A stretch of 64,000 nucleotides of DNA from Squalus acanthias. Taxonomy: Eukaryota. Under the pieces are notes generated by a model. That model was not told the origin of the DNA. It did not search any database and saw only the letters and a program-made list of their open reading frames with translations. Each line of letters opens with the position of its first letter. Position 1 is the stretch's first letter. This document shows positions 1-42,919 of this stretch, in pieces. Made by a program: the position numbers and the translations under genes. The DNA lies in contig CM059434.1 in the NCBI GenBank assembly GCA_030390025.1, positions 45,136,001 to 45,200,000 on the forward strand, given 5' to 3'.

Positions 1-555
1 CATTTGCAGTGAGTATAATGCAGTCCGGAGCTTCCAGGGCTGCTAATGTTGGAAATGCAGCGAATAGCATAAATGAATGAATGAAAGGGTAGGAAACGAG
101 CACAGAGTCAGATTGAATGTGAGTGATTGCCAAACTAAATGTATGCCATTTAGTAGTGGGTCAAGTGTGGAGGAGAATGAAATGAGGTTTGCGCTCTCTC
201 GTGGCCGCGGCGAGCATAATTGTGTAAAGTGGAGATTTTGTCAGTGCAGTGGCTGCAGTGAGCAGCAGGGAGCAGTAAGAGTGAGTTGAATGTGACGGAG
301 ACAAAGTGTGGAATATGGTAGTTGAATGCTGTGATGATGATGGGGAGACTGTGTGCATGTGCGTGGTGGGCTGCTGAAGATTTCGGTGTTGTAAAGTGTG
401 AGGCTTTGTTGTGGCGATGATATTGGATGTGAGAGGGGAAATGATTGCGGGTCTCAAGATTAGTGTGGTGAGAAAAGGCAGCGAGTTTGATTGCAGTGTT
501 GGCGATGGACACGTGTGGAGGTTTTTTGTTTGTTTGTTGTAAAGCAAAGAGTGGG

Positions 556-559
556 AAAA
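556..559 (-). terminator. Pol III T4 terminator of 7SL (repeated in every unit)
   Basis: AAAA on plus = TTTT on minus, immediately after the 3' strand of helix 5. Confidence 0.8.
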
Positions 560-853
560 GGATGCGTCTCACTGTATTGGCCAGGCTGCACTGCAGCCTC
601 TATTCACAAGTGCGACCCGACTACTGAGCAGCACGGGGGCTTTGACCTGCTCCGTTTCCGACCTGGGCCGGTTCACCCCGCTTTATCCGACCTGGTGAGC
701 CCAGGCTATCCTAGGACCACCATGTGGATACTGGTCTTAGTGCGGACACCCGATCGGCACAGAAGACAGCAGTCCAGAACTCCTGACCTCAAGCAATCCT
801 GCAGCCTCAGCCTCCCAGCAGCGGGATCACAGGTACGCGCCACCGCACCCGGC
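556..853 (-). ncRNA. RN7SL: 7SL / SRP RNA gene, copy 1
   Basis: Minus strand reads GCCGGGTGCGGTGGCGCGTACCTGTGATCCC...GCCGATCGGGTGTCCGCACTAAG...GGTGAACCGGCCCAGGTCGGAAACGGAGCAGGTCAAA...CCTTTT. It is collinear with vertebrate 7SL, with Alu and S domains, ~298 nt and a T4 Pol III terminator at 556-559. Confidence 0.97.
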
Positions 854-883
854 GAGTTTTGCTCTTGTTTCAGCAGCCTTCAG

Positions 884-911
884 TTAAAAACGGCAGCAGC
901 TGCTCTGCTGC
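884..911 (-). promoter_or_regulatory. Putative upstream 7SL promoter elements (repeated in every unit): TATA-like TTTTTAA at -37..-31 and palindrome GCAGCAG-N5-CTGCTGC containing E-box CAGCTG at -49..-44
   Basis: Positions counted from +1 at 853. An internal B-box-like GAGTTCTGGAC lies at 772-782. Function is inferred from position only. Confidence 0.4.
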
Positions 912-1976
912 ACTGAGCAATACAGGTTTGATGCTGTGCTTCATTTACTCATCTGGTGTCATTGCATGCTGCTGTGACTCTAAGTAAGAGCATCAAGACA
1001 ACATCAGTGATTGCACATTTCTCGGTCAAGACAACATTCCGAATCTATCCGGCTATACTAGCCTTCAGCGCAAGTATCAGTGCCTTGCAAAATGAGGCGT
1101 TGTGACAAGCAGCGTGTCGGTTGGCTGTCGTTCAGATTCCCGTTTGCTGCGAGGATGGCAGCACGGAAGAGCAGAGTCATTTCTGATGGATAAATGCCTC
1201 ACTGACGCACAGTTCTTACTAAGTGAAGCGGCCAAGGCACACAATCAGTGAGCATTGCTGGTTTCCTCGGTCCCTGTTTTCTGCCCTGGCCTTCTCCTTC
1301 AGGTTACGTTAAGTAGCGACGACGTTGAACAATGGGGTTTCGGTGATCTCACAATGTGGCTTGGAGATAACTTGAGTCAGTGGAATTTAGAATGTAACTT
1401 TTGCTGTGTCTCGTTCAATTGCATTTGCAGTGAGTATAATGCAGTCCGGAGCTTCCAGGGCTGCTAATGTTGGAAATGCAGCGAATAGCATAAATGAATG
1501 AATGAAAGGGTAGGAAACGAGCACAGAGTCAGATTGAATGTGAGTGATTGCCAAACTAAATGTATGCCATTTAGTAGTGGGTCAAGTGTGGAGGAGAATG
1601 AAATGAGGTTTGCGCTCTCTCGTGGCCGCGGCGAGCATAATTGTGTAAAGTGGAGATTTTGTCAGTGCAGTGGCTGCAGTGAGCAGCAGGGAGCAGTAAG
1701 AGTGAGTTGAATGTGACGGAGACAAAGTGTGGAATATGGTAGTTGAATGCTGTGATGATGATGGGGAGACTGTGTGCATGTGCGTGGTGGGCTGCTGAAG
1801 ATTTCGGTGTTGTAAAGTGTGAGGCTTTGTTGTGGCGATGATATTGGATGTGAGAGGGGAAATGATTGCGGGTCTCAAGATTAGTGTGGTGAGAAAAGGC
1901 AGCGAGTTTGATTGCAGTGTTGGCGATGGACACGTGTGGAGGTTTTTTGTTTGTTTGTTGTAAAGCAAAGAGTGGG

Positions 1977-2274
1977 AAAAGGATGCGTCTCACTGTATTG
2001 GCCAGGCTGCACTGCAGCCTCTATTCACAAGTGCGACCCGACTACTGAGCAGCACGGGGGCTTTGACCTGCTCCGTTTCCGACCTGGGCCGGTTCACCCC
2101 GCTTTATCCGACCTGGTGAGCCCAGGCTATCCTAGGACCACCATGTGGATACTGGTCTTAGTGCGGACACCCGATCGGCACAGAAGACAGCAGTCCAGAA
2201 CTCCTGACCTCAAGCAATCCTGCAGCCTCAGCCTCCCAGCAGCGGGATCACAGGTACGCGCCACCGCACCCGGC
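1977..2274 (-). ncRNA. RN7SL: 7SL / SRP RNA gene, copy 2
   Basis: Same sequence as copy 1, offset 1421. Confidence 0.97.
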
Positions 2275-3397
2275 GAGTTTTGCTCTTGTTTCAGCAGCCT
2301 TCAGTTAAAAACGGCAGCAGCTGCTCTGCTGCACTGAGCAATACAGGTTTGATGCTGTGCTTCATTTACTCATCTGGTGTCATTGCATGCTGCTGTGACT
2401 CTAAGTAAGAGCATCAAGACAATATCAGTGATTGCACATTTCTCGGTCAAGACAACATTCCGAATCTATCCGGCTATACTAGCCTTCAGCGCAAGTATCA
2501 GTGCCTTGCAAAATGAGGCGTTGTGACAAGCAGCGTGTCGGTTGGCTGTCGTTCAGATTCCCGTTTGCTGCGAGGATGGCAGCACGGAAGAGCAGAGTCA
2601 TTTCTGATGGATAAATGCCTCACTGACGCACAGTTCTTACTAAGTGAAGCGGCCAAGGCACACAATCAGTGAGCATTGCTGGTTTCCTCGGTCCCTGTTT
2701 TCTGCCCTGGCCTTCTCCTTCAGGTTACGTTAAGTAGCGACGACGTTGAACAATGGGGTTTCGGTGATCTCACAATGTGGCTTGGAGATAACTTGAGTCA
2801 GTGGAATTTAGAATGTAACTTTTGCTGTGTCTCGTTCAATTGCATTTGCAGTGAGTATAATGCAGTCCGGAGCTTCCAGGGCTGCTAATGTTGGAAATGC
2901 AGCGAATAGCATAAATGAATGAATGAAAGGGTAGGAAACGAGCACAGAGTCAGATTGAATGTGAGTGATTGCCAAACTAAATGTATGCCATTTAGTAGTG
3001 GGTCAAGTGTGGAGGAGAATGAAATGAGGTTTGCGCTCTCTCGTGGCCGCGGCGAGCATAATTGTGTAAAGTGGAGATTTTGTCAGTGCAGTGGCTGCAG
3101 TGAGCAGCAGGGAGCAGTAAGAGTGAGTTGAATGTGACGGAGACAAAGTGTGGAATATGGTAGTTGAATGCTGTGATGATGATGGGGAGACTGTGTGCAT
3201 GTGCGTGGTGGGCTGCTGAAGATTTCGGTGTTGTAAAGTGTGAGGCTTTGTTGTGGCGATGATATTGGATGTGAGAGGGGAAATGATTGCGGGTCTCAAG
3301 ATTAGTGTGGTGAGAAAAGGCAGCGAGTTTGATTGCAGTGTTGGCGATGGACACGTGTGGAGGTTTTTTGTTTGTTTGTTGTAAAGCAAAGAGTGGG

Positions 3398-3695
3398 AAA
3401 AGGATGCGTCTCACTGTATTGGCCAGGCTGCACTGCAGCCTCTATTCACAAGTGCGACCCGACTACTGAGCAGCACGGGGGCTTTGACCTGCTCCGTTTC
3501 CGACCTGGGCCGGTTCACCCCGCTTTATCCGACCTGGTGAGCCCAGGCTATCCTAGGACCACCATGTGGATACTGGTCTTAGTGCGGACACCCGATCGGC
3601 ACAGAAGACAGCAGTCCAGAACTCCTGACCTCAAGCAATCCTGCAGCCTCAGCCTCCCAGCAGCGGGATCACAGGTACGCGCCACCGCACCCGGC
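3398..3695 (-). ncRNA. RN7SL: 7SL / SRP RNA gene, copy 3
   Basis: Same sequence as copy 1. Confidence 0.97.
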
Positions 3696-4818
3696 GAGTT
3701 TTGCTCTTGTTTCAGCAGCCTTCAGTTAAAAACGGCAGCAGCTGCTCTGCTGCACTGAGCAATACAGGTTTGATGCTGTGCTTCATTTACTCATCTGGTG
3801 TCATTGCATGCTGCTGTGACTCTAAGTAAGAGCATCAAGACAACATCAGTGATTGCACATTTCTCGGTCAAGACAACATTCCGAATCTATCCGGCTATAC
3901 TAGCCTTCAGCGCAAGTATCAGTGCCTTGCAAAATGAGGCGTTGTGACAAGCAGCGTGTCGGTTGGCTGTCGTTCAGATTCCCGTTTGCTGCGAGGATGG
4001 CAGCACGGAAGAGCAGAGTCATTTCTGATGGATAAATGCCTCACTGACGCACAGTTCTTACTAAGTGAAGCGGCCAAGGCACACAATCAGTGAGCATTGC
4101 TGGTTTCCTCGGTCCCTGTTTTCTGCCCTGGCCTTCTCCTTCAGGTTACGTTAAGTAGCGACGACGTTGAACAATGGGGTTTCGGTGATCTCACAATGTG
4201 GCTTGGAGATAACTTGAGTCAGTGGAATTTAGAATGAAACTTTTGCTGTGTCTCGTTCAATTGCATTTGCAGTGAGTATAATGCAGTCCGGAGCTTCCAG
4301 GGCTGCTAATGTTGGAAATGCAGCGAATAGCATAAATGAATGAATGAAAGGGTAGGAAACGAGCACAGAGTCAGATTGAATGTGAGTGATTGCCAAACTA
4401 AATGTATGCCATTTAGTAGTGGGTCAAGTGTGGAGGAGAATGAAATGAGGTTTGCGCTCTCTCGTGGCCGCGGCGAGCATAATTGTGTAAAGTGGAGATT
4501 TTGTCAGTGCAGTGGCTGCAGTGAGCAGCAGGGAGCAGTAAGAGTGAGTTGAATGTGACGGAGACAAAGTGTGGAATATGGTAGTTGAATGCTGTGATGA
4601 TGATGGGGAGACTGTGTGCATGTGCGTGGTGGGCTGCTGAAGATTTCGGTGTTGTAAAGTGTGAGGCTTTGTTGTGGCGATGATATTGGATGTGAGAGGG
4701 GAAATGATTGCGGGTCTCAAGATTAGTGTGGTGAGAAAAGGCAGCGAGTTTGATTGCAGTGTTGGCGATGGACACGTGTGGAGGTTTTTTGTTTGTTTGT
4801 TGTAAAGCAAAGAGTGGG

Positions 4819-5116
4819 AAAAGGATGCGTCTCACTGTATTGGCCAGGCTGCACTGCAGCCTCTATTCACAAGTGCGACCCGACTACTGAGCAGCACGGG
4901 GGCTTTGACCTGCTCCGTTTCCGACCTGGGCCGGTTCACCCCGCTTTATCCGACCTGGTGAGCCCAGGCTATCCTAGGACCACCATGTGGATACTGGTCT
5001 TAGTGCGGACACCCGATCGGCACAGAAGACAGCAGTCCAGAACTCCTGACCTCAAGCAATCCTGCAGCCTCAGCCTCCCAGCAGCGGGATCACAGGTACG
5101 CGCCACCGCACCCGGC
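4819..5116 (-). ncRNA. RN7SL: 7SL / SRP RNA gene, copy 4
   Basis: Same sequence as copy 1. Confidence 0.97.
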
Positions 5117-6239
5117 GAGTTTTGCTCTTGTTTCAGCAGCCTTCAGTTAAAAACGGCAGCAGCTGCTCTGCTGCACTGAGCAATACAGGTTTGATGCTGT
5201 GCTTCATTTACTCATCTGGTGTCATTGCATGCTGCTGTGACTCTAAGTAAGAGCATCAAGACAACATCAGTGATTGCACATTTCTCGGTCAAGACAACAT
5301 TCCGAATCTATCCGGCTATACTAGCCTTCAGCGCAAGTATCAGTGCCTTGCAAAATGAGGCGTTGTGACAAGCAGCGTGTCGGTTGGCTGTCGTTCAGAT
5401 TCCCGTTTGCTGCGAGGATGGCAGCACGGAAGAGCAGAGTCATTTCTGATGGATAAATGCCTCACTGACGCACAGTTCTTACTAAGTGAAGCGGCCAAGG
5501 CACACAATCAGTGAGCATTGCTGGTTTCCTCGGTCCCTGTTTTCTGCCCTGGCCTTCTCCTTCAGGTTACGTTAAGTAGCGACGACGTTGAACAATGGGG
5601 TTTCGGTGATCTCACAATGTGGCTTGGAGATAACTTGAGTCAGTGGAATTTAGAATGAAACTTTTGCTGTGTCTCGTTCAATTGCATTTGCAGTGAGTAT
5701 AATGCAGTCCGGAGCTTCCAGGGCTGCTAATGTTGGAAATGCAGCGAATAGCATAAATGAATGAATGAAAGGGTAGGAAACGAGCACAGAGTCAGATTGA
5801 ATGTGAGTGATTGCCAAACTAAATGTATGCCATTTAGTAGTGGGTCAAGTGTGGAGGAGAATGAAATGAGGTTTGCGCTCTCTCGTGGCCGCGGCGAGCA
5901 TAATTGTGTAAAGTGGAGATTTTGTCAGTGCAGTGGCTGCAGTGAGCAGCAGGGAGCAGTAAGAGTGAGTTGAATGTGACGGAGACAAAGTGTGGAATAT
6001 GGTAGTTGAATGCTGTGATGATGATGGGGAGACTGTGTGCATGTGCGTGGTGGGCTGCTGAAGATTTCGGTGTTGTAAAGTGTGAGGCTTTGTTGTGGCG
6101 ATGATATTGGATGTGAGAGGGGAAATGATTGCGGGTCTCAAGATTAGTGTGGTGAGAAAAGGCAGCGAGTTTGATTGCAGTGTTGGCGATGGACACGTGT
6201 GGAGGTTTTTTGTTTGTTTGTTGTAAAGCAAAGAGTGGG

Positions 6240-6537
6240 AAAAGGATGCGTCTCACTGTATTGGCCAGGCTGCACTGCAGCCTCTATTCACAAGTGCGAC
6301 CCGACTACTGAGCAGCACGGGGGCTTTGACCTGCTCCGTTTCCGACCTGGGCCGGTTCACCCCGCTTTATCCGACCTGGTGAGCCCAGGCTATCCTAGGA
6401 CCACCATGTGGATACTGGTCTTAGTGCGGACACCCGATCGGCACAGAAGACAGCAGTCCAGAACTCCTGACCTCAAGCAATCCTGCAGCCTCAGCCTCCC
6501 AGCAGCGGGATCACAGGTACGCGCCACCGCACCCGGC
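6240..6537 (-). ncRNA. RN7SL: 7SL / SRP RNA gene, copy 5
   Basis: Same sequence as copy 1. Confidence 0.97.
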
Positions 6538-7660
6538 GAGTTTTGCTCTTGTTTCAGCAGCCTTCAGTTAAAAACGGCAGCAGCTGCTCTGCTGCACTGA
6601 GCAATACAGGTTTGATGCTGTGCTTCATTTACTCATCTGGTGTCATTGCATGCTGCTGTGACTCTAAGTAAGAGCATCAAGACAACATCAGTGATTGCAC
6701 ATTTCTCGGTCAAGACAACATTCCGAATCTATCCGGCTATACTAGCCTTCAGCGCAAGTATCAGTGCCTTGCAAAATGAGGCGTTGTGACAAGCAGCGTG
6801 TCGGTTGGCTGTCGTTCAGATTCCCGTTTGCTGCGAGGATGGCAGCACGGAAGAGCAGAGTCATTTCTGATGGATAAATGCCTCACTGACGCACAGTTCT
6901 TACTAAGTGAAGCGGCCAAGGCACACAATCAGTGAGCATTGCTGGTTTCCTCGGTCCCTGTTTTCTGCCCTGGCCTTCTCCTTCAGGTTACGTTAAGTAG
7001 CGACGACGTTGAACAATGGGGTTTCGGTGATCTCACAATGTGGCTTGGAGATAACTTGAGTCAGTGGAATTTAGAATGAAACTTTTGCTGTGTCTCGTTC
7101 AATTGCATTTGCAGTGAGTATAATGCAGTCCGGAGCTTCCAGGGCTGCTAATGTTGGAAATGCAGCGAATAGCATAAATGAATGAATGAAAGGGTAGGAA
7201 ACGAGCACAGAGTCAGATTGAATGTGAGTGATTGCCAAACTAAATGTATGCCATTTAGTAGTGGGTCAAGTGTGGAGGAGAATGAAATGAGGTTTGCGCT
7301 CTCTCGTGGCCGCGGCGAGCATAATTGTGTAAAGTGGAGATTTTGTCAGTGCAGTGGCTGCAGTGAGCAGCAGGGAGCAGTAAGAGTGAGTTGAATGTGA
7401 CGGAGACAAAGTGTGGAATATGGTAGTTGAATGCTGTGATGATGATGGGGAGACTGTGTGCATGTGCGTGGTGGGCTGCTGAAGATTTCGGTGTTGTAAA
7501 GTGTGAGGCTTTGTTGTGGCGATGATATTGGATGTGAGAGGGGAAATGATTGCGGGTCTCAAGATTAGTGTGGTGAGAAAAGGCAGCGAGTTTGATTGCA
7601 GTGTTGGCGATGGACACGTGTGGAGGTTTTTTGTTTGTTTGTTGTAAAGCAAAGAGTGGG

Positions 7661-7958
7661 AAAAGGATGCGTCTCACTGTATTGGCCAGGCTGCACTGCA
7701 GCCTCTATTCACAAGTGCGACCCGACTACTGAGCAGCACGGGGGCTTTGACCTGCTCCGTTTCCGACCTGGGCCGGTTCACCCCGCTTTATCCGACCTGG
7801 TGAGCCCAGGCTATCCTAGGACCACCATGTGGATACTGGTCTTAGTGCGGACACCCGATCGGCACAGAAGACAGCAGTCCAGAACTCCTGACCTCAAGCA
7901 ATCCTGCAGCCTCAGCCTCCCAGCAGCGGGATCACAGGTACGCGCCACCGCACCCGGC
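7661..7958 (-). ncRNA. RN7SL: 7SL / SRP RNA gene, copy 6
   Basis: Same sequence as copy 1. Confidence 0.97.
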
Positions 7959-9081
7959 GAGTTTTGCTCTTGTTTCAGCAGCCTTCAGTTAAAAACGGCA
8001 GCAGCTGCTCTGCTGCACTGAGCAATACAGGTTTGATGCTGTGCTTCATTTACTCATCTGGTGTCATTGCATGCTGCTGTGACTCTAAGTAAGAGCATCA
8101 AGACAATATCAGTGATTGCACATTTCTCGGTCAAGACAACATTCCGAATCTATCCGGCTATACTAGCCTTCAGCGCAAGTATCAGTGCCTTGCAAAATGA
8201 GGCGTTGTGACAAGCAGCGTGTCGGTTGGCTGTCGTTCAGATTCCCGTTTGCTGCGAGGATGGCAGCACGGAAGAGCAGAGTCATTTCTGATGGATAAAT
8301 GCCTCACTGACGCACAGTTCTTACTAAGTGAAGCGGCCAAGGCACACAATCAGTGAGCATTGCTGGTTTCCTCGGTCCCTGTTTTCTGCCCTGGCCTTCT
8401 CCTTCAGGTTACGTTAAGTAGCGACGACGTTGAACAATGGGGTTTCGGTGATCTCACAATGTGGCTTGGAGATAACTTGAGTCAGTGGAATTTAGAATGA
8501 AACTTTTGCTGTGTCTCGTTCAATTGCATTTGCAGTGAGTATAATGCAGTCCGGAGCTTCCAGGGCTGCTAATGTTGGAAATGCAGCGAATAGCATAAAT
8601 GAATGAATGAAAGGGTAGGAAACGAGCACAGAGTCAGATTGAATGTGAGTGATTGCCAAACTAAATGTATGCCATTTAGTAGTGGGTCAAGTGTGGAGGA
8701 GAATGAAATGAGGTTTGCGCTCTCTCGTGGCCGCGGCGAGCATAATTGTGTAAAGTGGAGATTTTGTCAGTGCAGTGGCTGCAGTGAGCAGCAGGGAGCA
8801 GTAAGAGTGAGTTGAATGTGACGGAGACAAAGTGTGGAATATGGTAGTTGAATGCTGTGATGATGATGGGGAGACTGTGTGCATGTGCGTGGTGGGCTGC
8901 TGAAGATTTCGGTGTTGTAAAGTGTGAGGCTTTGTTGTGGCGATGATATTGGATGTGAGAGGGGAAATGATTGCGGGTCTCAAGATTAGTGTGGTGAGAA
9001 AAGGCAGCGAGTTTGATTGCAGTGTTGGCGATGGACACGTGTGGAGGTTTTTTGTTTGTTTGTTGTAAAGCAAAGAGTGGG

Positions 9082-9379
9082 AAAAGGATGCGTCTCACTG
9101 TATTGGCCAGGCTGCACTGCAGCCTCTATTCACAAGTGCGACCCGACTACTGAGCAGCACGGGGGCTTTGACCTGCTCCGTTTCCGACCTGGGCCGGTTC
9201 ACCCCGCTTTATCCGACCTGGTGAGCCCAGGCTATCCTAGGACCACCATGTGGATACTGGTCTTAGTGCGGACACCCGATCGGCACAGAAGACAGCAGTC
9301 CAGAACTCCTGACCTCAAGCAATCCTGCAGCCTCAGCCTCCCAGCAGCGGGATCACAGGTACGCGCCACCGCACCCGGC
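9082..9379 (-). ncRNA. RN7SL: 7SL / SRP RNA gene, copy 7
   Basis: Same sequence as copy 1. Confidence 0.97.
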
Positions 9380-10502
9380 GAGTTTTGCTCTTGTTTCAGC
9401 AGCCTTCAGTTAAAAACGGCAGCAGCTGCTCTGCTGCACTGAGCAATACAGGTTTGATGCTGTGCTTCATTTACTCATCTGGTGTCATTGCATGCTGCTG
9501 TGACTCTAAGTAAGAGCATCAAGACAACATCAGTGATTGCACATTTCTCGGTCAAGACAACATTCCGAATCTATCCGGCTATACTAGCCTTCAGCGCAAG
9601 TATCAGTGCCTTGCAAAATGAGGCGTTGTGACAAGCAGCGTGTCGGTTGGCTGTCGTTCAGATTCCCGTTTGCTGCGAGGATGGCAGCACGGAAGAGCAG
9701 AGTCATTTCTGATGGATAAATGCCTCACTGACGCACAGTTCTTACTAAGTGAAGCGGCCAAGGCACACAATCAGTGAGCATTGCTGGTTTCCTCGGTCCC
9801 TGTTTTCTGCCCTGGCCTTCTCCTTCAGGTTACGTTAAGTAGCGACGACGTTGAACAATGGGGTTTCGGTGATCTCACAATGTGGCTTGGAGATAACTTG
9901 AGTCAGTGGAATTTAGAATGAAACTTTTGCTGTGTCTCGTTCAATTGCATTTGCAGTGAGTATAATGCAGTCCGGAGCTTCCAGGGCTGCTAATGTTGGA
10001 AATGCAGCGAATAGCATAAATGAATGAATGAAAGGGTAGGAAACGAGCACAGAGTCAGATTGAATGTGAGTGATTGCCAAACTAAATGTATGCCATTTAG
10101 TAGTGGGTCAAGTGTGGAGGAGAATGAAATGAGGTTTGCGCTCTCTCGTGGCCGCGGCGAGCATAATTGTGTAAAGTGGAGATTTTGTCAGTGCAGTGGC
10201 TGCAGTGAGCAGCAGGGAGCAGTAAGAGTGAGTTGAATGTGACGGAGACAAAGTGTGGAATATGGTAGTTGAATGCTGTGATGATGATGGGGAGACTGTG
10301 TGCATGTGCGTGGTGGGCTGCTGAAGATTTCGGTGTTGTAAAGTGTGAGGCTTTGTTGTGGCGATGATATTGGATGTGAGAGGGGAAATGATTGCGGGTC
10401 TCAAGATTAGTGTGGTGAGAAAAGGCAGCGAGTTTGATTGCAGTGTTGGCGATGGACACGTGTGGAGGTTTTTTGTTTGTTTGTTGTAAAGCAAAGAGTG
10501 GG

Positions 10503-10800
10503 AAAAGGATGCGTCTCACTGTATTGGCCAGGCTGCACTGCAGCCTCTATTCACAAGTGCGACCCGACTACTGAGCAGCACGGGGGCTTTGACCTGCTCC
10601 GTTTCCGACCTGGGCCGGTTCACCCCGCTTTATCCGACCTGGTGAGCCCAGGCTATCCTAGGACCACCATGTGGATACTGGTCTTAGTGCGGACACCCGA
10701 TCGGCACAGAAGACAGCAGTCCAGAACTCCTGACCTCAAGCAATCCTGCAGCCTCAGCCTCCCAGCAGCGGGATCACAGGTACGCGCCACCGCACCCGGC
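10503..10800 (-). ncRNA. RN7SL: 7SL / SRP RNA gene, copy 8
   Basis: Same sequence as copy 1. Confidence 0.97.
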
Positions 10801-11923: not shown

Positions 11924-12221
11924 AAAAGGATGCGTCTCACTGTATTGGCCAGGCTGCACTGCAGCCTCTATTCACAAGTGCGACCCGACTACTGAGCAGC
12001 ACGGGGGCTTTGACCTGCTCCGTTTCCGACCTGGGCCGGTTCACCCCGCTTTATCCGACCTGGTGAGCCCAGGCTATCCTAGGACCACCATGTGGATACT
12101 GGTCTTAGTGCGGACACCCGATCGGCACAGAAGACAGCAGTCCAGAACTCCTGACCTCAAGCAATCCTGCAGCCTCAGCCTCCCAGCAGCGGGATCACAG
12201 GTACGCGCCACCGCACCCGGC
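11924..12221 (-). ncRNA. RN7SL: 7SL / SRP RNA gene, copy 9
   Basis: Same sequence as copy 1. Confidence 0.97.
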
Positions 12222-13344: not shown

Positions 13345-13642
13345 AAAAGGATGCGTCTCACTGTATTGGCCAGGCTGCACTGCAGCCTCTATTCACAAGT
13401 GCGACCCGACTACTGAGCAGCACGGGGGCTTTGACCTGCTCCGTTTCCGACCTGGGCCGGTTCACCCCGCTTTATCCGACCTGGTGAGCCCAGGCTATCC
13501 TAGGACCACCATGTGGATACTGGTCTTAGTGCGGACACCCGATCGGCACAGAAGACAGCAGTCCAGAACTCCTGACCTCAAGCAATCCTGCAGCCTCAGC
13601 CTCCCAGCAGCGGGATCACAGGTACGCGCCACCGCACCCGGC
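13345..13642 (-). ncRNA. RN7SL: 7SL / SRP RNA gene, copy 10
   Basis: Same sequence as copy 1. Confidence 0.97.
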
Positions 13643-14765
13643 GAGTTTTGCTCTTGTTTCAGCAGCCTTCAGTTAAAAACGGCAGCAGCTGCTCTGCTGC
13701 ACTGAGCAATACAGGTTTGATGCTGTGCTTCATTTACTCATCTGGTGTCATTGCATGCTGCTGTGACTCTAAGTAAGAGCATCAAGACAACATCAGTGAT
13801 TGCACATTTCTCGGTCAAGACAACATTCCGAATCTATCCGGCTATACTAGCCTTCAGCGCAAGTATCAGTGCCTTGCAAAATGAGGCGTTGTGACAAGCA
13901 GCGTGTCGGTTGGCTGTCGTTCAGATTCCCGTTTGCTGCGAGGATGGCAGCACGGAAGAGCAGAGTCATTTCTGATGGATAAATGCCTCACTGACGCACA
14001 GTTCTTACTAAGTGAAGCGGCCAAGGCACACAATCAGTGAGCATTGCTGGTTTCCTCGGTCCCTGTTTTCTGCCCTGGCCTTCTCCTTCAGGTTACGTTA
14101 AGTAGCGACGACGTTGAACAATGGGGTTTCGGTGATCTCACAATGTGGCTTGGAGATAACTTGAGTCAGTGGAATTTAGAATGAAACTTTTGCTGTGTCT
14201 CGTTCAATTGCATTTGCAGTGAGTATAATGCAGTCCGGAGCTTCCAGGGCTGCTAATGTTGGAAATGCAGCGAATAGCATAAATGAATGAATGAAAGGGT
14301 AGGAAACGAGCACAGAGTCAGATTGAATGTGAGTGATTGCCAAACTAAATGTATGCCATTTAGTAGTGGGTCAAGTGTGGAGGAGAATGAAATGAGGTTT
14401 GCGCTCTCTCGTGGCCGCGGCGAGCATAATTGTGTAAAGTGGAGATTTTGTCAGTGCAGTGGCTGCAGTGAGCAGCAGGGAGCAGTAAGAGTGAGTTGAA
14501 TGTGACGGAGACAAAGTGTGGAATATGGTAGTTGAATGCTGTGATGATGATGGGGAGACTGTGTGCATGTGCGTGGTGGGCTGCTGAAGATTTCGGTGTT
14601 GTAAAGTGTGAGGCTTTGTTGTGGCGATGATATTGGATGTGAGAGGGGAAATGATTGCGGGTCTCAAGATTAGTGTGGTGAGAAAAGGCAGCGAGTTTGA
14701 TTGCAGTGTTGGCGATGGACACGTGTGGAGGTTTTTTGTTTGTTTGTTGTAAAGCAAAGAGTGGG

Positions 14766-15063
14766 AAAAGGATGCGTCTCACTGTATTGGCCAGGCTGCA
14801 CTGCAGCCTCTATTCACAAGTGCGACCCGACTACTGAGCAGCACGGGGGCTTTGACCTGCTCCGTTTCCGACCTGGGCCGGTTCACCCCGCTTTATCCGA
14901 CCTGGTGAGCCCAGGCTATCCTAGGACCACCATGTGGATACTGGTCTTAGTGCGGACACCCGATCGGCACAGAAGACAGCAGTCCAGAACTCCTGACCTC
15001 AAGCAATCCTGCAGCCTCAGCCTCCCAGCAGCGGGATCACAGGTACGCGCCACCGCACCCGGC
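14766..15063 (-). ncRNA. RN7SL: 7SL / SRP RNA gene, copy 11
   Basis: Same sequence as copy 1. Confidence 0.97.
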
Positions 15064-16186
15064 GAGTTTTGCTCTTGTTTCAGCAGCCTTCAGTTAAAAA
15101 CGGCAGCAGCTGCTCTGCTGCACTGAGCAATACAGGTTTGATGCTGTGCTTCATTTACTCATCTGGTGTCATTGCATGCTGCTGTGACTCTAAGTAAGAG
15201 CATCAAGACAATATCAGTGATTGCACATTTCTCGGTCAAGACAACATTCCGAATCTATCCGGCTATACTAGCCTTCAGCGCAAGTATCAGTGCCTTGCAA
15301 AATGAGGCGTTGTGACAAGCAGCGTGTCGGTTGGCTGTCGTTCAGATTCCCGTTTGCTGCGAGGATGGCAGCACGGAAGAGCAGAGTCATTTCTGATGGA
15401 TAAATGCCTCACTGACGCACAGTTCTTACTAAGTGAAGCGGCCAAGGCACACAATCAGTGAGCATTGCTGGTTTCCTCGGTCCCTGTTTTCTGCCCTGGC
15501 CTTCTCCTTCAGGTTACGTTAAGTAGCGACGACGTTGAACAATGGGGTTTCGGTGATCTCACAATGTGGCTTGGAGATAACTTGAGTCAGTGGAATTTAG
15601 AATGTAACTTTTGCTGTGTCTCGTTCAATTGCATTTGCAGTGAGTATAATGCAGTCCGGAGCTTCCAGGGCTGCTAATGTTGGAAATGCAGCGAATAGCA
15701 TAAATGAATGAATGAAAGGGTAGGAAACGAGCACAGAGTCAGATTGAATGTGAGTGATTGCCAAACTAAATGTATGCCATTTAGTAGTGGGTCAAGTGTG
15801 GAGGAGAATGAAATGAGGTTTGCGCTCTCTCGTGGCCGCGGCGAGCATAATTGTGTAAAGTGGAGATTTTGTCAGTGCAGTGGCTGCAGTGAGCAGCAGG
15901 GAGCAGTAAGAGTGAGTTGAATGTGACGGAGACAAAGTGTGGAATATGGTAGTTGAATGCTGTGATGATGATGGGGAGACTGTGTGCATGTGCGTGGTGG
16001 GCTGCTGAAGATTTCGGTGTTGTAAAGTGTGAGGCTTTGTTGTGGCGATGATATTGGATGTGAGAGGGGAAATGATTGCGGGTCTCAAGATTAGTGTGGT
16101 GAGAAAAGGCAGCGAGTTTGATTGCAGTGTTGGCGATGGACACGTGTGGAGGTTTTTTGTTTGTTTGTTGTAAAGCAAAGAGTGGG

Positions 16187-16484
16187 AAAAGGATGCGTCT
16201 CACTGTATTGGCCAGGCTGCACTGCAGCCTCTATTCACAAGTGCGACCCGACTACTGAGCAGCACGGGGGCTTTGACCTGCTCCGTTTCCGACCTGGGCC
16301 GGTTCACCCCGCTTTATCCGACCTGGTGAGCCCAGGCTATCCTAGGACCACCATGTGGATACTGGTCTTAGTGCGGACACCCGATCGGCACAGAAGACAG
16401 CAGTCCAGAACTCCTGACCTCAAGCAATCCTGCAGCCTCAGCCTCCCAGCAGCGGGATCACAGGTACGCGCCACCGCACCCGGC
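16187..16484 (-). ncRNA. RN7SL: 7SL / SRP RNA gene, copy 12
   Basis: Same sequence as copy 1. Confidence 0.97.
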
Positions 16485-17607
16485 GAGTTTTGCTCTTGTT
16501 TCAGCAGCCTTCAGTTAAAAACGGCAGCAGCTGCTCTGCTGCACTGAGCAATACAGGTTTGATGCTGTGCTTCATTTACTCATCTGGTGTCATTGCATGC
16601 TGCTGTGACTCTAAGTAAGAGCATCAAGACAACATCAGTGATTGCACATTTCTCGGTCAAGACAACATTCCGAATCTATCCGGCTATACTAGCCTTCAGC
16701 GCAAGTATCAGTGCCTTGCAAAATGAGGCGTTGTGACAAGCAGCGTGTCGGTTGGCTGTCGTTCAGATTCCCGTTTGCTGCGAGGATGGCAGCACGGAAG
16801 AGCAGAGTCATTTCTGATGGATAAATGCCTCACTGACGCACAGTTCTTACTAAGTGAAGCGGCCAAGGCACACAATCAGTGAGCATTGCTGGTTTCCTCG
16901 GTCCCTGTTTTCTGCCCTGGCCTTCTCCTTCAGGTTACGTTAAGTAGCGACGACGTTGAACAATGGGGTTTCGGTGATCTCACAATGTGGCTTGGAGATA
17001 ACTTGAGTCAGTGGAATTTAGAATGTAACTTTTGCTGTGTCTCGTTCAATTGCATTTGCAGTGAGTATAATGCAGTCCGGAGCTTCCAGGGCTGCTAATG
17101 TTGGAAATGCAGCGAATAGCATAAATGAATGAATGAAAGGGTAGGAAAAGAGCACAGAGTCAGATTGAATGTGAGTGATTGCCAAACTAAATGTATGCCA
17201 TTTAGTAGTGGGTCAAGTGTGGAGGAGAATGAAATGAGGTTTGCGCTCTCTCGTGGCCGCGGCGAGCATAATTGTGTAAAGTGGAGATTTTGTCAGTGCA
17301 GTGGCTGCAGTGAGCAGCAGGGAGCAGTAAGAGTGAGTTGAATGTGACGGAGACAAAGTGTGGAATATGGTAGTTGAATGCTGTGATGATGATGGGGAGA
17401 CTGTGTGCATGTGCGTGGTGGGCTGCTGAAGATTTCGGTGTTGTAAAGTGTGAGGCTTTGTTGTGGCGATGATATTGGATGTGAGAGGGGAAATGATTGC
17501 GGGTCTCAAGATTAGTGTGGTGAGAAAAGGCAGCGAGTTTGATTGCAGTGTTGGCGATGGACACGTGTGGAGGTTTTTTGTTTGTTTGTTGTAAAGCAAA
17601 GAGTGGG

Positions 17608-17905
17608 AAAAGGATGCGTCTCACTGTATTGGCCAGGCTGCACTGCAGCCTCTATTCACAAGTGCGACCCGACTACTGAGCAGCACGGGGGCTTTGACCT
17701 GCTCCGTTTCCGACCTGGGCCGGTTCACCCCGCTTTATCCGACCTGGTGAGCCCAGGCTATCCTAGGACCACCATGTGGATACTGGTCTTAGTGCGGACA
17801 CCCGATCGGCACAGAAGACAGCAGTCCAGAACTCCTGACCTCAAGCAATCCTGCAGCCTCAGCCTCCCAGCAGCGGGATCACAGGTACGCGCCACCGCAC
17901 CCGGC
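17608..17905 (-). ncRNA. RN7SL: 7SL / SRP RNA gene, copy 13
   Basis: Same sequence as copy 1. Confidence 0.97.
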
Positions 17906-19028
17906 GAGTTTTGCTCTTGTTTCAGCAGCCTTCAGTTAAAAACGGCAGCAGCTGCTCTGCTGCACTGAGCAATACAGGTTTGATGCTGTGCTTCATTTAC
18001 TCATCTGGTGTCATTGCATGCTGCTGTGACTCTAAGTAAGAGCATCAAGACAACATCAGTGATTGCACATTTCTCGGTCAAGACAACATTCCGAATCTAT
18101 CCGGCTATACTAGCCTTCAGCGCAAGTATCAGTGCCTTGCAAAATGAGGCGTTGTGACAAGCAGCGTGTCGGTTGGCTGTCGTTCAGATTCCCGTTTGCT
18201 GCGAGGATGGCAGCACGGAAGAGCAGAGTCATTTCTGATGGATAAATGCCTCACTGACGCACAGTTCTTACTAAGTGAAGCGGCCAAGGCACACAATCAG
18301 TGAGCATTGCTGGTTTCCTCGGTCCCTGTTTTCTGCCCTGGCCTTCTCCTTCAGGTTACGTTAAGTAGCGACGACGTTGAACAATGGGGTTTCGGTGATC
18401 TCACAATGTGGCTTGGAGATAACTTGAGTCAGTGGAATTTAGAATGAAACTTTTGCTGTGTCTCGTTCAATTGCATTTGCAGTGAGTATAATGCAGTCCG
18501 GAGCTTCCAGGGCTGCTAATGTTGGAAATGCAGCGAATAGCATAAATGAATGAATGAAAGGGTAGGAAACGAGCACAGAGTCAGATTGAATGTGAGTGAT
18601 TGCCAAACTAAATGTATGCCATTTAGTAGTGGGTCAAGTGTGGAGGAGAATGAAATGAGGTTTGCGCTCTCTCGTGGCCGCGGCGAGCATAATTGTGTAA
18701 AGTGGAGATTTTGTCAGTGCAGTGGCTGCAGTGAGCAGCAGGGAGCAGTAAGAGTGAGTTGAATGTGACGGAGACAAAGTGTGGAATATGGTAGTTGAAT
18801 GCTGTGATGATGATGGGGAGACTGTGTGCATGTGCGTGGTGGGCTGCTGAAGATTTCGGTGTTGTAAAGTGTGAGGCTTTGTTGTGGCGATGATATTGGA
18901 TGTGAGAGGGGAAATGATTGCGGGTCTCAAGATTAGTGTGGTGAGAAAAGGCAGCGAGTTTGATTGCAGTGTTGGCGATGGACACGTGTGGAGGTTTTTT
19001 GTTTGTTTGTTGTAAAGCAAAGAGTGGG

Positions 19029-19326
19029 AAAAGGATGCGTCTCACTGTATTGGCCAGGCTGCACTGCAGCCTCTATTCACAAGTGCGACCCGACTACTGA
19101 GCAGCACGGGGGCTTTGACCTGCTCCGTTTCCGACCTGGGCCGGTTCACCCCGCTTTATCCGACCTGGTGAGCCCAGGCTATCCTAGGACCACCATGTGG
19201 ATACTGGTCTTAGTGCGGACACCCGATCGGCACAGAAGACAGCAGTCCAGAACTCCTGACCTCAAGCAATCCTGCAGCCTCAGCCTCCCAGCAGCGGGAT
19301 CACAGGTACGCGCCACCGCACCCGGC
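19029..19326 (-). ncRNA. RN7SL: 7SL / SRP RNA gene, copy 14
   Basis: Same sequence as copy 1. Confidence 0.97.
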
Positions 19327-20449
19327 GAGTTTTGCTCTTGTTTCAGCAGCCTTCAGTTAAAAACGGCAGCAGCTGCTCTGCTGCACTGAGCAATACAGGT
19401 TTGATGCTGTGCTTCATTTACTCATCTGGTGTCATTGCATGCTGCTGTGACTCTAAGTAAGAGCATCAAGACAACATCAGTGATTGCACATTTCTCGGTC
19501 AAGACAACATTCCGAATCTATCCGGCTATACTAGCCTTCAGCGCAAGTATCAGTGCCTTGCAAAATGAGGCGTTGTGACAAGCAGCGTGTCGGTTGGCTG
19601 TCGTTCAGATTCCCGTTTGCTGCGAGGATGGCAGCACGGAAGAGCAGAGTCATTTCTGATGGATAAATGCCTCACTGACGCACAGTTCTTACTAAGTGAA
19701 GCGGCCAAGGCACACAATCAGTGAGCATTGCTGGTTTCCTCGGTCCCTGTTTTCTGCCCTGGCCTTCTCCTTCAGGTTACGTTAAGTAGCGACGACGTTG
19801 AACAATGGGGTTTCGGTGATCTCACAATGTGGCTTGGAGATAACTTGAGTCAGTGGAATTTAGAATGAAACTTTTGCTGTGTCTCGTTCAATTGCATTTG
19901 CAGTGAGTATAATGCAGTCCGGAGCTTCCAGGGCTGCTAATGTTGGAAATGCAGCGAATAGCATAAATGAATGAATGAAAGGGTAGGAAACGAGCACAGA
20001 GTCAGATTGAATGTGAGTGATTGCCAAACTAAATGTATGCCATTTAGTAGTGGGTCAAGTGTGGAGGAGAATGAAATGAGGTTTGCGCTCTCTCGTGGCC
20101 GCGGCGAGCATAATTGTGTAAAGTGGAGATTTTGTCAGTGCAGTGGCTGCAGTGAGCAGCAGGGAGCAGTAAGAGTGAGTTGAATGTGACGGAGACAAAG
20201 TGTGGAATATGGTAGTTGAATGCTGTGATGATGATGGGGAGACTGTGTGCATGTGCGTGGTGGGCTGCTGAAGATTTCGGTGTTGTAAAGTGTGAGGCTT
20301 TGTTGTGGCGATGATATTGGATGTGAGAGGGGAAATGATTGCGGGTCTCAAGATTAGTGTGGTGAGAAAAGGCAGCGAGTTTGATTGCAGTGTTGGCGAT
20401 GGACACGTGTGGAGGTTTTTTGTTTGTTTGTTGTAAAGCAAAGAGTGGG

Positions 20450-20747
20450 AAAAGGATGCGTCTCACTGTATTGGCCAGGCTGCACTGCAGCCTCTATTCA
20501 CAAGTGCGACCCGACTACTGAGCAGCACGGGGGCTTTGACCTGCTCCGTTTCCGACCTGGGCCGGTTCACCCCGCTTTATCCGACCTGGTGAGCCCAGGC
20601 TATCCTAGGACCACCATGTGGATACTGGTCTTAGTGCGGACACCCGATCGGCACAGAAGACAGCAGTCCAGAACTCCTGACCTCAAGCAATCCTGCAGCC
20701 TCAGCCTCCCAGCAGCGGGATCACAGGTACGCGCCACCGCACCCGGC
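20450..20747 (-). ncRNA. RN7SL: 7SL / SRP RNA gene, copy 15
   Basis: Same sequence as copy 1. Confidence 0.97.
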
Positions 20748-21869
20748 GAGTTTTGCTCTTGTTTCAGCAGCCTTCAGTTAAAAACGGCAGCAGCTGCTCT
20801 GCTGCACTGAGCAATACAGGTTTGATGCTGTGCTTCATTTACTCATCTGGTGTCATTGCATGCTGCTGTGACTCTAAGTAAGAGCATCAAGACAACATCA
20901 GTGATTGCACATTTCTCGGTCAAGACAACATTCCGAATCTATCCGGCTATACTAGCCTTCAGCGCAAGTATCAGTGCCTTGCAAAATGAGGCGTTGTGAC
21001 AAGCAGCGTGTCGGTTGGCTGTCGTTCAGATTCCCGTTTGCTGCGAGGATGGCAGCACGGAAGAGCAGAGTCATTTCTGATGGATAAATGCCTCACTGAC
21101 GCACAGTTCTTACTAAGTGAAGCGGCCAAGGCACACAATCAGTGAGCATTGCTGGTTTCCTCGGTCCCTGTTTTCTGCCCTGGCCTTCTCCTTCAGGTTA
21201 CGTTAAGTAGCGACGACGTTGAACAATGGGGTTTCGGTGATCTCACAATGTGGCTTGGAGATAACTTGAGTCAGTGGAATTTAGAATGAAACTTTTGCTG
21301 TGTCTCGTTCAATTGCATTTGCAGTGAGTATAATGCAGTCCGGAGCTTCCAGGGCTGCTAATGTTGGAAATGCAGCGAATAGCATAAATGAATGAATGAA
21401 AGGGTAGGAAACGAGCACAGAGTCAGATTGAATGTGAGTGATTGCCAAACTAAATGTATGCCATTTAGTAGTGGGTCAAGTGTGGAGGAGAATGAAATGA
21501 GGTTTGCGCTCTCTCGTGGCCGCGGCGAGCATAATTGTGTAAAGTGGAGATTTTGTCAGTGCAGTGGCTGCAGTGAGCAGCAGGGAGCAGTAAGAGTGAG
21601 TTGAATGTGACGGAGACAAAGTGTGGAATATGGTAGTTGAATGCTGTGATGATGATGGGGAGACTGTGTGCATGTGCGTGGTGGGCTGCTGAGATTTCGG
21701 TGTTGTAAAGTGTGAGGCTTTGTTGTGGCGATGATATTGGATGTGAGAGGGGAAATGATTGCGGGTCTCAAGATTAGTGTGGTGAGAAAAGGCAGCGAGT
21801 TTGATTGCAGTGTTGGCGATGGACACGTGTGGAGGTTTTTTGTTTGTTTGTTGTAAAGCAAAGAGTGGG

Positions 21870-22167
21870 AAAAGGATGCGTCTCACTGTATTGGCCAGGC
21901 TGCACTGCAGCCTCTATTCACAAGTGCGACCCGACTACTGAGCAGCACGGGGGCTTTGACCTGCTCCGTTTCCGACCTGGGCCGGTTCACCCCGCTTTAT
22001 CCGACCTGGTGAGCCCAGGCTATCCTAGGACCACCATGTGGATACTGGTCTTAGTGCGGACACCCGATCGGCACAGAAGACAGCAGTCCAGAACTCCTGA
22101 CCTCAAGCAATCCTGCAGCCTCAGCCTCCCAGCAGCGGGATCACAGGTACGCGCCACCGCACCCGGC
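21870..22167 (-). ncRNA. RN7SL: 7SL / SRP RNA gene, copy 16
   Basis: Same sequence as copy 1; register shifted by a 1-bp spacer deletion near 21692. Confidence 0.97.
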
Positions 22168-23288
22168 GAGTTTTGCTCTTGTTTCAGCAGCCTTCAGTTA
22201 AAAACGGCAGCAGCTGCTCTGCTGCACTGAGCAATACAGGTTTGATGCTGTGCTTCATTTACTCATCTGGTGTCATTGCATGCTGCTGTGACTCTAAGTA
22301 AGAGCATCAAGACAACATCAGTGATTGCACATTTCTCGGTCAAGACAACATTCCGAATCTATCCGGCTATACTAGCCTTCAGCGCAAGTATCAGTGCCTT
22401 GCAAAATGAGGCGCTGTGACAAGCAGCGTGTCGGTTGGCTGTCGTTCAGATTCCCGTTTGCTGCGAGGATGGCAGCACGGAAGAGCAGAGTCATTTCTGA
22501 TGGAAAAATGCCTCACTGACGCACAGTTCTTACTAAGTGAAGCGGCCAAGGCACAATCAGTGAGCATTGCTGGTTTCCTCGGTCCCTGTTTTCTGCCCTG
22601 GCCTTCTCCTTCAGGTTACGTTAAGTAGCGACGACGTTGAACAATGGGGTTTCGGTGATCTCACAATGTGGCTTGGAGATAACTTGAGTCAGTGGAATTT
22701 AGAATGAAACTTTTGCTGTGTCTCGTTCAATTGCATTTGCAGTGAGTATAATGCAGTCCGGAGCTTCCAGGGCTGCTAATGTTGGAAATGCAGCGAATAG
22801 CATAAATGAATGAATGAAAGGGTAGGAAACGAGCACAGAGTCAGATTGAATGTGAGTGATTGCCAAACTAAATGTATGCCATTTAGTAGTGGGTCAAGTG
22901 TGGAGGAGAAGGAAATGAGGTTTGCGCTCTCTCGTGGCCGCGGCGAGCATAATTGTGTAAAGTGGAGATTTTGTCAGTGCAGTGGCTGCAGTGAGCAGCA
23001 GGGAGCAGTAAGAGTGAGTTGAATGTGACGGAGACAAAGTGTGGAATATGGTAGTTGAATGCTGTGATGATGATGGGGAGACTGTGTGCATGTGCGTGGT
23101 GGGCTGCTGAAGATTTCGGTGTTGTAAAGTGTGAGGCTTTGTTGTGGCGATGATATTGGATGTGAGAGGGGAAATGATTGCGGGTCTCAAGATTAGTGTG
23201 GTGAGAAAAGGCAGCGAGTTTGATTGCAGTGTTGGCGATGGACACGTGTGGAGGTTTTTTGTTTGTTTGTTGTAAAGCAAAGAGTGGG

Positions 23289-23586
23289 AAAAGGATGCGT
23301 CTCACTGTATTGGCCAGGCTGCACTGCAGCCTCTATTCACAAGTGCGACCCGACTACTGAGCAGCACGGGGGCTTTGACCTGCTCCGTTTCCGACCTGGG
23401 CCGGTTCACCCCGCTTTATCCGACCTGGTGAGCCCAGGCTATCCTAGGACCACCATGTGGATACTGGTCTTAGTGCGGACACCCGATCGGCACAGAAGAC
23501 AGCAGTCCAGAACTCCTGACCTCAAGCAATCCTGCAGCCTCAGCCTCCCAGCAGCGGGATCACAGGTACGCGCCACCGCACCCGGC
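23289..23586 (-). ncRNA. RN7SL: 7SL / SRP RNA gene, copy 17 (array-terminal, most upstream)
   Basis: Same sequence as copy 1; register shifted by a further 2-bp spacer deletion near 22552. Confidence 0.97.
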
Positions 23587-24480
23587 GAGTTTTGCTCTTG
23601 TTTCAGCAGCCTTCAGTTAAAAACGGCAGCAGCTGCTCTGCTGCACTGAGCAATACAGGTTTGATGCTGTGCTTCATTTACTCATCTGGTGTCATTGCAT
23701 GCTGCTGTGACTCTAAGTAAGAGCATCAAGACAACATCAGTGATTGCACATTTCTCGGTCAAGACAACATTCCGAATCTATCCGGCTATACTAGCCTTCA
23801 GCGCAAGTATCAGTGCCTTGCAAAATGAGGCGCTGTGACAAGCAGCGTGTCGGTTGGCTGTCGTTCAGATTCCCGTTTGCTGCGAGGATGGCAGCACGGA
23901 AGAGCAGAGTCATTTCTGATGGAAAAATGCCTCACTGACGCACAGTTCTTACTAAGTGAAGCGGCCAAGGCACAATCAGTGAGCATTGCTGGTTTCCTCG
24001 GTCCCTGTTTTCTGCCCTGGCCTTCTCCTTCAGGTTACGTTAAGTAGCGACGACGTTGAACAATGGGGTTTCGGTGATCTCACAATGTGGCTTGGAGATA
24101 ACTTGAGTCAGTGGAATTTAGAATGAAACTTTTGCTGTGTCTCGTTCAATTGCATTTGCAGTGAGTATAATGCAGTCCGGAGCTTCCAGGGCTGCTAATG
24201 TTGGAAATGCAGCGAATAGCATAAATGAATGAATGAAAGGGTAGGAAACGAGCACAGAGTCAGATTGAATGTGAGTGATTGCCAAACTAAATGTATGCCA
24301 TTTAGTAGTGGGTCAAGTGTGGAGGAGAAGGAAATGAGGTTTGCGCTCTCTGGTGAGAGCAGGGGAAGTCGTTACGGTAGCTCGAGCCTGCTCCGACTGT
24401 CGCCCTCGTAGGTGGACCGCTCACTCTGACTCCCAGGCCTCTGCTGCACGCTGCCTTAATTGCCGGTCTCCGACTCCGTG

Positions 24481-24530
24481 CCTCCCGCCCGTCCCCTCAC
24501 TTCGACTGTACTGCTGCCCTGTGACGTCAC
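24481..24530. promoter_or_regulatory. GC box plus perfect palindromic CRE/ATF site in CpG-rich array flank
   Basis: CCTCCCGCCC at 24481-24490; GTGACGTCAC at 24521-24530. Confidence 0.4.
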
Positions 24531-29918: not shown

Positions 29919-30101
29919 TTACGCATTGGACGCAGCAGTCAGTTTGTACCAGTTAACGGTTTCCTTGCTCAAGTCAAACTCTTTCAGAGTTAACGTAACG
30001 CCACCCAGGTAAACGTTTTCTCGTAACGACTCTGCGCTTAACACACTCAGCTGCAACTCCCTCTGTTTGAGTGATTCTTTACTGTATCCACTGTATACCA
30101 A
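29919..30101 (-). CDS. PIK3C2A: PI3K-C2alpha last coding exon (C-terminal C2 domain, stop TAA)
   Basis: [37 protein letters not shown]...[10 protein letters not shown]; AG acceptor at 30102-30103. Confidence 0.96.
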
Positions 30102-31959: not shown

Positions 31960-32181
<222 letters not shown>

Positions 32182-33079: not shown

Positions 33080-33230
33080 TTAAATAGAGAGCACAATCCA
33101 ATATTATTTGATTGCCCCCAAGGGACACAAGGGCAAAATCCATGTGATTACACCACATGTACCAAGGAAACAGGTGAGAGGGCCCTTGCTGGGAGGCTAG
33201 GGCACAGCTCTGAGCATGACTGTCACTTAC

Positions 33231-33340
33231 CAGATCTCTGATGTGCATTACCATGATGAATAGTGTACTGTTTCTGTATGAAATAGACAGCTTAACTTCT
33301 CCCCCCACTTGACCTGTGCTGGGACTTGGTCGAACAATTT
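33231..33340 (-). CDS. PIK3C2A: PI3K-C2alpha exon (start of C-terminal C2)
   Basis: [36 protein letters not shown]; 110 nt. Confidence 0.95.

Positions 33341-42637: not shown

Positions 42638-42919
<282 letters not shown>

Follow-up and report, generated by a model that had tools for sequence, protein, structure and literature searches.

The window analysed here, a 64,000-nt stretch of a shark genome (Squalus acanthias; G000:C10:45,136,001-45,200,000), carries part of an array of 51 genes for a divergent 7SL RNA, the RNA of the signal recognition particle (SRP), and an ordinary 7SL gene stands alone outside it. The array type is a member of the Rfam family Metazoa_SRP (RF00017) that departs from the consensus in one feature, the GNAR loop of helix 6, and the layout matches the egg-type versus somatic-type arrangement of zebrafish. 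We consider it rather probable that the array encodes a germline or egg-type SRP RNA at high gene dosage and that the solitary gene, linked to RPS13, serves the soma; the tissue assignment of both types is made by analogy with zebrafish only.

The tandem array and the solitary 7SL gene

An Rfam scan of the window returned 17 full-length Metazoa_SRP matches, all on the minus strand (556-853 to 23289-23586), each covering model positions 1-299 with 240.2 bits (E 7.8e-65; the gathering cut-off of RF00017 is 70 bits), and no other Rfam family was found there. A preliminary description of the window had reported 17 consecutive units of about 1421 bp, each with a complete 7SL gene and its terminator, and the scan bears this out: every copy ends in the same T4, the predicted RNA polymerase III (Pol III) terminator (556-559 in copy 1, minus strand), and a second T4 lies 80 nt beyond it. 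The genes are copy 1 at 556-853 (+1 at 853), copies 2 to 8 at 1977-2274, 3398-3695, 4819-5116, 6240-6537, 7661-7958, 9082-9379 and 10503-10800, copies 9 to 16 at 11924-12221, 13345-13642, 14766-15063, 16187-16484, 17608-17905, 19029-19326, 20450-20747 and 21870-22167, and copy 17, the first in the direction of transcription, at 23289-23586. Each 298-nt gene is joined to a spacer of ~1123 bp (854-1976 in unit 1, minus strand, by sequence comparison); 14 of the 16 complete units in the window measure 1421 bp and the other two 1420 and 1419 bp. Tandem Repeats Finder is blind to the 1421-bp period.

On the right, the window part of the array (1-24355) ends where unit homology stops, at 24355, in good agreement with the edge formerly placed at 24351. 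It was also said to continue off the window, and it does so for ~48.5 kb beyond the left end, with 34 further copies (G000:C10 ~45,087,500-45,160,355 as a whole). In our survey of 264 kb of contiguous sequence, which contains no N, the 51 genes lie head to tail at C10:45,088,274-45,159,586, ~73 kb with their spacers, and both ends of the array are anchored in unique sequence between RPS13 and PIK3C2A. The claim that the coding parts do not differ holds for the window, where all 17 are identical and the nine variable columns lie in spacers, as described, and fails for the whole array, where 46 of the 51 genes are identical, four internal copies have one to three differences and the far terminal copy has seven. 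The 50 array units comprise 21 distinct sequences (mean 3.5 differences), with variants in blocks along the array, and the spacer at the far edge is decayed (690 of 747 aligned bases match the unit). A real array under concerted evolution is expected to look like this, homogenised inside and decayed at its edges.

Some minor observations belong here. At gene position 197, within the loop region of helix 8, the array copies at C10:45,093,950 and 45,098,206 (L013 and L012) share an A-to-G change that is also present in a dead dispersed copy, L059; one-base indels in three internal copies may be sequencing errors. Local alignment gave no support to a decayed, partial 52nd gene that nhmmer had suggested at the far edge, and a tRNA search of the stretches L013-L018 found none.

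Genome-wide searches covered the 3.71-Gb assembly. Two motifs common to both 7SL types gave 59 and 54 matches with at most three mismatches. Each set contains 50 array copies and the solitary gene, and the other 8 and 3 matches are scattered, so that these genome-wide counts indicate no second 7SL array. The spacer was ruled out as a dispersed repeat, since all 40 scored of 54 genome-wide candidates fall in the array. Because motif counts and spacer candidates localise in this way, the assembly contains one array and one ordinary 7SL gene.

The separate canonical gene foreseen by the preliminary description, for which a genome-wide Infernal search had been proposed, is the top-ranked of 25 scored candidates in that search (270 bits, C10:45,050,284-581, plus strand). 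It lies 38 kb from the array on the opposite strand, tail to tail with it, and its start is separated by 180 bp from the ATG of RPS13, with which it is arranged head to head (L029:1290-1798; G000:C10:45,050,104-581). In human, RN7SL1 stands in the same head-to-head arrangement with RPS29, which also encodes a ribosomal protein. The solitary gene sits in a CpG island (CpG observed/expected 1.08, 68% GC) with a cAMP-response element (CRE), TGACGTCA, at -51; an ATF/CRE site above a TATA-like box is the known 7SL promoter arrangement according to the accessible part of PMC8362101.

The array RNA had been called a distinct variant, and it does differ from the solitary type at 42 of 298 positions (14%), without gaps. 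Both the Alu and the S domain are affected: 24 differences fall within the S domain (positions 101-250, limits after the accessible part of PMC4615810) and 18 outside it, with the greatest density over positions 81-156. Upstream the array gene has a TATA-like element, T5-AA at about -37 to -31 (884-890, minus strand, from the sequence), and neither a proximal CRE nor a CpG island; no CRE core (TGACG/CGTCA) occurs nearer than -354. CpG observed/expected is 0.65 in the array spacer versus 0.32 in the flank, and 17 CpG are retained in the gene.

Both the full-length RF00017 match above the cut-off and the consensus pairing are found in the array type. The Alu-domain motif UGUNR (so named in the accessible part of PMC2905702) reads UGUGA in the array type and UGUAA in the solitary type. 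Helix 8, the predicted SRP54 site (gene positions 175-225; 629-679, minus strand), is identical to that of the solitary gene by sequence comparison, with a GAAA (GNRA) loop. The apical loop of helix 6 (gene positions 145-148; 706-709, minus strand, by Rfam alignment) is AUAG, and GGAA in the solitary gene. According to the accessible part of PMC4615810, SRP19 binds primarily at this loop, whose consensus is GNAR and whose third A forms a pair with the loop of helix 8. The array loop has A for G at the first base and keeps the third-position A and the fourth-position purine. A natural deviation of the same loop, AAAG, is given for Thermoplasmatales archaea in the accessible part of PMC2905702.

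The array unit was found, whole or in part, in 20 of 21 listed sequencing runs. At least half of its words are present in 11 runs, which come from five studies under organism labels A-C and of which one may be the source, and 0.22-0.31 of them in six (five studies, labels D-G); shares of 0.10-0.12 in three further runs and of 0.00 in one are too small to count as evidence. None of the listed runs that contain the unit is an RNA run. Since the solitary type could supply only ~21 of the ~1550 unit words, array-type sequence exists under other organism labels, judged by word shares. A type-neutral 7SL pattern had no match in metagenome contigs.

Signs of selection on the fold, origin and surroundings

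The array type keeps 97 of the 120 Rfam pairs and the solitary type 99. Random placement of the same 42 substitutions keeps 85.9 +/- 3.1 pairs, and 2 of 10,000 placements reach 97. Four pairs are changed on both sides and still pair (compensatory; null 48/10,000), and a 51-nt run free of differences covers helix 8 (P 0.008); the Rfam structure register is approximate in helix 5. By minimum-energy folding the array type cannot be told apart from the null (free energy -126.9 vs -122.1 +/- 5.2), and its unconstrained minimum-energy fold departs from the consensus structure.

The dispersed copy L059 (G000:C3:184.17 Mb) adds a time point. It is full length from +1 to the T run (147.5 bits), has an 11-nt deletion and lacks the array flank. 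Because it carries 24 array states and retains 12 solitary states, it is best placed as a branch that left the array type at an earlier stage. Of the 12 changes that parsimony assigns to the array line after this split, 1 breaks a pair, versus 10 of the 18 private to L059 (Fisher P 0.018; null 162/10,000), and helix 8 carries five changes in this dead copy and none in the array type. Selection on the array type thus went on beyond the split. At the far edge of the array, the gene differs from the unit at 7 of 298 positions and its spacer at 57 of 747 (P 0.0009), a comparison confounded by the edge gradient.

The origin of the array can be traced in its spacer. Some 180 bp, 265-443 nt downstream of the array gene, form a colinear alignment with flanking sequence that lies 308-479 nt downstream of the solitary gene. 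The alignment scores 71, against a maximum of 50 in 500 resampled controls and of 55 in 378 real flank windows. This shared downstream flank argues for local duplication at the DNA level, and we infer that the array unit descends from an inverted duplication of the solitary locus. A 235-bp piece of array spacer, 87% identical, is also present 0.76 kb behind the solitary gene (G000:C10:45,051,339-572; L029/L017). It has the array orientation and adjoins the older homologous flank, which is in the opposite orientation; it is possibly the scar of the inversion or of a later conversion.

Ten scattered 7SL fragments were typed at the diagnostic sites: five are of solitary type (20:1, 22:1, 16:0, 22:3 and 21:5), two are array-like (L059 and L060) and three uninformative. 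The T run of L059 is joined to the tail of a dispersed repeat that recurs many times in the 404 kb searched, a structure that an RNA-derived copy would show, which suggests a retrocopy; if it is one, then the array type was once a germline RNA. A decayed tRNA-Val(AAC) (33.5 bits) lies 350 bp upstream of its 7SL part, and what we take to be a second tRNA-like relic, presumably closest to tRNA-Gly as judged by eye and called by neither Rfam nor ARAGORN, has its B box ending ~13 nt before the +1. On a single strand, L059:429-1323 thus reads tRNA-Val, repeat, tRNA-like relic, 7SL, T run and repeat tail, either a chimera put together serially from RNAs or a mixed cluster of Pol III genes that is now dead.

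As to the neighbouring genes, the one to the left of the array is recognised as RPS13 from peptide motifs in its exons and from three intronic SNORD14 genes (L018:5561-8714). The right side of the array faces the 3' end of PIK3C2A, whose last coding exon (29922-30101, minus strand, from protein matches) lies outside the array. Among the best 120 of 493 matches, shark and ray proteins rank highest, with 90-98% identity to this exon, whereas chimaera has 86% and bony vertebrates no more than 88%; these identities show the animal to be an elasmobranch and agree with the cartilaginous fish suggested before. The 3' exons of PIK3C2A visible in the window (26700-47540, minus strand) are 29922-30101, ~32050-32181, ~33200-33290, ~42635-42810 and ~47350-47540, and a candidate polyA signal at 26717 lies ~2.4 kb from the array, in the same direction. 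Past the array edge, decayed spacer relics were located by sequence comparison on the plus strand at 24566-24592, 25018-25055 and 25122-25230 (71-96% identity). Directly beyond the edge, 24356-24530 is GC-rich and contains, near 24523, a CRE word that is palindromic and lies ~940 bp upstream of the first gene. We rejected this word as a relic of the solitary promoter, there being no upstream homology.

A probable germline or egg type and its alternatives

The scenario that we favour would begin with a local duplication and inversion of the solitary gene as DNA. The duplicate would have lost the CRE/CpG-island promoter and come to rely on internal boxes and the TATA-like element, and would then have been amplified and homogenised by unequal exchange, with selection holding the fold. 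By analogy with zebrafish, the 51 copies would be transcribed by Pol III in oocytes, stocking SRP for the egg, and the solitary type would take over during development. The array RNA should still clamp helices 6 and 8, the third loop A being kept, and should bind SRP54, helix 8 being unchanged; the ANAR loop may alter its affinity for SRP19.

Several lines of evidence support the germline reading. The layout is that of zebrafish, clustered copies plus one gene near the start of a Pol II gene; the fold is kept, the array branch bears signs of selection and the promoters differ; L059 looks RNA-derived; two RNase P RNA types parallel those of zebrafish; and spacer CpG is not depleted as it is in the flank. 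The preliminary interpretation, an amplified and stage-specific SRP RNA locus, is partly supported, namely in the distinct RNA type, the separate canonical gene, the cartilaginous fish, an array that is no assembly artefact in kind and the signs of selection on the fold; that the array would be transcribed, and in oocytes or at a given stage, is proposed by analogy. It had missed the zebrafish precedent, which makes the interpretation likelier and less novel.

A number of observations pull the other way. The GNAR consensus is broken at position 1 of the helix-6 loop. Across the 50 internal units, the gene has 6 variable events in 298 bp versus ~17 in 1123 bp of spacer and is not the poorer of the two, its variants all being confined to one or two copies. 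The three youngest dispersed fragments (95-98% identical) are of solitary type and none is close to the present array type; this is not the simplest pattern predicted for a germline flooded with array RNA. L059 itself may be a DNA relic and no retrocopy, because decayed tRNA-like sequences adjoin it. Finally, the word "oocyte" may be too narrow, since in zebrafish the maternal RNAs are present in primordial germ cells and in testis as well.

The array could also be functional without being germline-specific, giving extra SRP RNA either everywhere in the body or in red cells or one secretory tissue of the soma (liver, shell gland), its differences being tolerated drift. All the evidence for selection fits this account equally well, the two classes of elasmobranch 5S rDNA are said not to match oocyte and somatic types in the accessible part of PMC3123226, and a single SRP19 locus was found, hence no dedicated partner is evident (two exon matches among 10 candidates; no second locus in this exon-by-exon search, which has low sensitivity). 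We nevertheless regard it as rather unlikely: the solitary gene, with its housekeeping-type CpG island and CRE and with the youngest fragments, looks like the general supplier, and the only measured case of such a layout, that of zebrafish, is stage-specific. Somewhat greater doubt attaches to a once-functional cluster that is now a silent satellite, homogenised by unequal crossing-over, with a fold inherited from its working past. Such a satellite would explain the missing CRE near the start, the altered helix-6 loop, the lack of a young dispersed copy of the present array type and the within-array variation that is not lower over the gene; homogenisation alone gives identical copies, and zebrafish has intact unexpressed copies too. 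It is harder to reconcile with latest fixed changes that respect pairing (1 of 12 breaks a pair), with a helix 8 untouched in the array and changed five times in the truly dead L059, with the 17 CpG retained in the gene, or with the far-edge contrast of gene and spacer, subject to the confounding noted above.

We give almost no credence to the idea that assembly has multiplied one gene or a few into the present copy number, a concern raised from the start (one or two true copies). The many near-identical units do mean that the exact count may be collapsed or inflated; set against this are the gap-free sequence with both ends anchored, the 21 distinct unit sequences with variants grouped in blocks, the decayed edge units on both sides, and the 11 listed runs from five studies (one may be the source) that hold at least half of the unit's words.

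Returning to the egg-type reading, a broader version can be offered as a speculation that we ourselves doubt: elasmobranchs would have evolved a germline set of Pol III translation RNAs independently of zebrafish, made up of a 51-copy SRP array from an inverted duplication of the RPS13-linked gene, an ANAR SRP19 loop altering the assembly or storage of SRP in the egg, and a second RNase P RNA type.

Zebrafish and other known systems

In zebrafish, 67 clustered SRP RNA genes are expressed in the egg and early embryo and are then replaced by one somatic gene, which lies 448 bp away from where the Pol II gene EMC10 begins; the two types are ~7% different (bioRxiv 10.1101/869651). The same preprint, whose authors term their results preliminary, also reports the maternal-type RNAs in testis, intact yet unexpressed SRP RNA copies and a maternal RNase P RNA 80% identical to the main one. 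These "maternal" RNAs occur in primordial germ cells too. Plasmodium and the Xenopus 5S genes aside, a 2024 preprint still regards zebrafish as the sole known case of a full dual-ribosome system.

The maternal rpph1 of zebrafish is mirrored in the shark by two RNase P RNA types that are, as in zebrafish, ~80% identical. One is a solitary gene of 322 nt (L066, G000:C6:125,607,111-432); the other, of 296 nt, forms a three-copy cluster (L076, C2:18,720,852-18,728,126, the first two copies 1448 bp apart) with one further copy that lacks the shared upstream region (L068, C2417:318,284-579). Proximal sequence element-like and TATA-like words stand at the solitary gene and at two of the cluster copies. 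For 7SK, at least nine matches were found among 20 scored, and none is clustered.

Our search of the open-access literature, which excluded genome annotations, brought up no account of a 7SL array in sharks or rays, and the accessible parts of PMC12054243, PMC12046345 and PMC6004055 make no mention of 7SL gene arrays; genome annotations may already list the array genes without comment. In that literature the sole report of a maternal-type SRP RNA that we found is the one zebrafish preprint. The idea itself is known from zebrafish; the lineage is new, and so are the larger divergence, the parent gene close by and the change in the SRP19 loop. A second case, in a cartilaginous fish, would come with a divergence twice as large, 42 diagnostic sites, neighbouring parent and daughter genes and an SRP19 loop that has changed, and it would make it easy to ask whether an egg-type SRP is general, how often it has arisen, and whether it differs in function or in dosage only. 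If the broader version offered above is true, dual maternal and somatic SRP would be a recurring solution in large-egged jawed vertebrates and no zebrafish oddity.

The likeness to zebrafish extends to dozens of clustered genes (67 vs 51) beside one solitary gene at a Pol II gene start (EMC10 vs RPS13), and to differences between the types in both the Alu and S domains. There are differences too: the zebrafish types are ~7% apart and those of the shark 14%; zebrafish has three clusters at 91% identity and up, whereas the shark has one uninterrupted array with 46 of 51 genes identical; and the zebrafish clusters (chromosome 11) and solitary gene are on different chromosomes, whereas the shark pair is 38 kb apart with a shared flank. 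Because the array flank is homologous to that of the solitary gene of the same genome, we infer that the shark array arose independently of the zebrafish clusters. The zebrafish maternal type is defined by measured expression, and the shark array is known here from its genes.

Compared with canonical vertebrate 7SL, the array type likewise has a full RF00017 match, UGUGA, the helix-8 GAAA loop, the third A of helix 6 and a T-run terminator, but it has neither a proximal ATF/CRE nor a CpG island, its helix-6 loop is of the form ANAR (AUAG), and its gene is present 51 times. The 5S classes resemble the 7SL array in being tandem, homogenised classes of one housekeeping RNA, the oocyte class being described, in the accessible part of the source, as duplicated from the somatic one. 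Both 5S classes form arrays, whereas one of the two shark SRP RNA types is single-copy, and the RNA itself is a different one.

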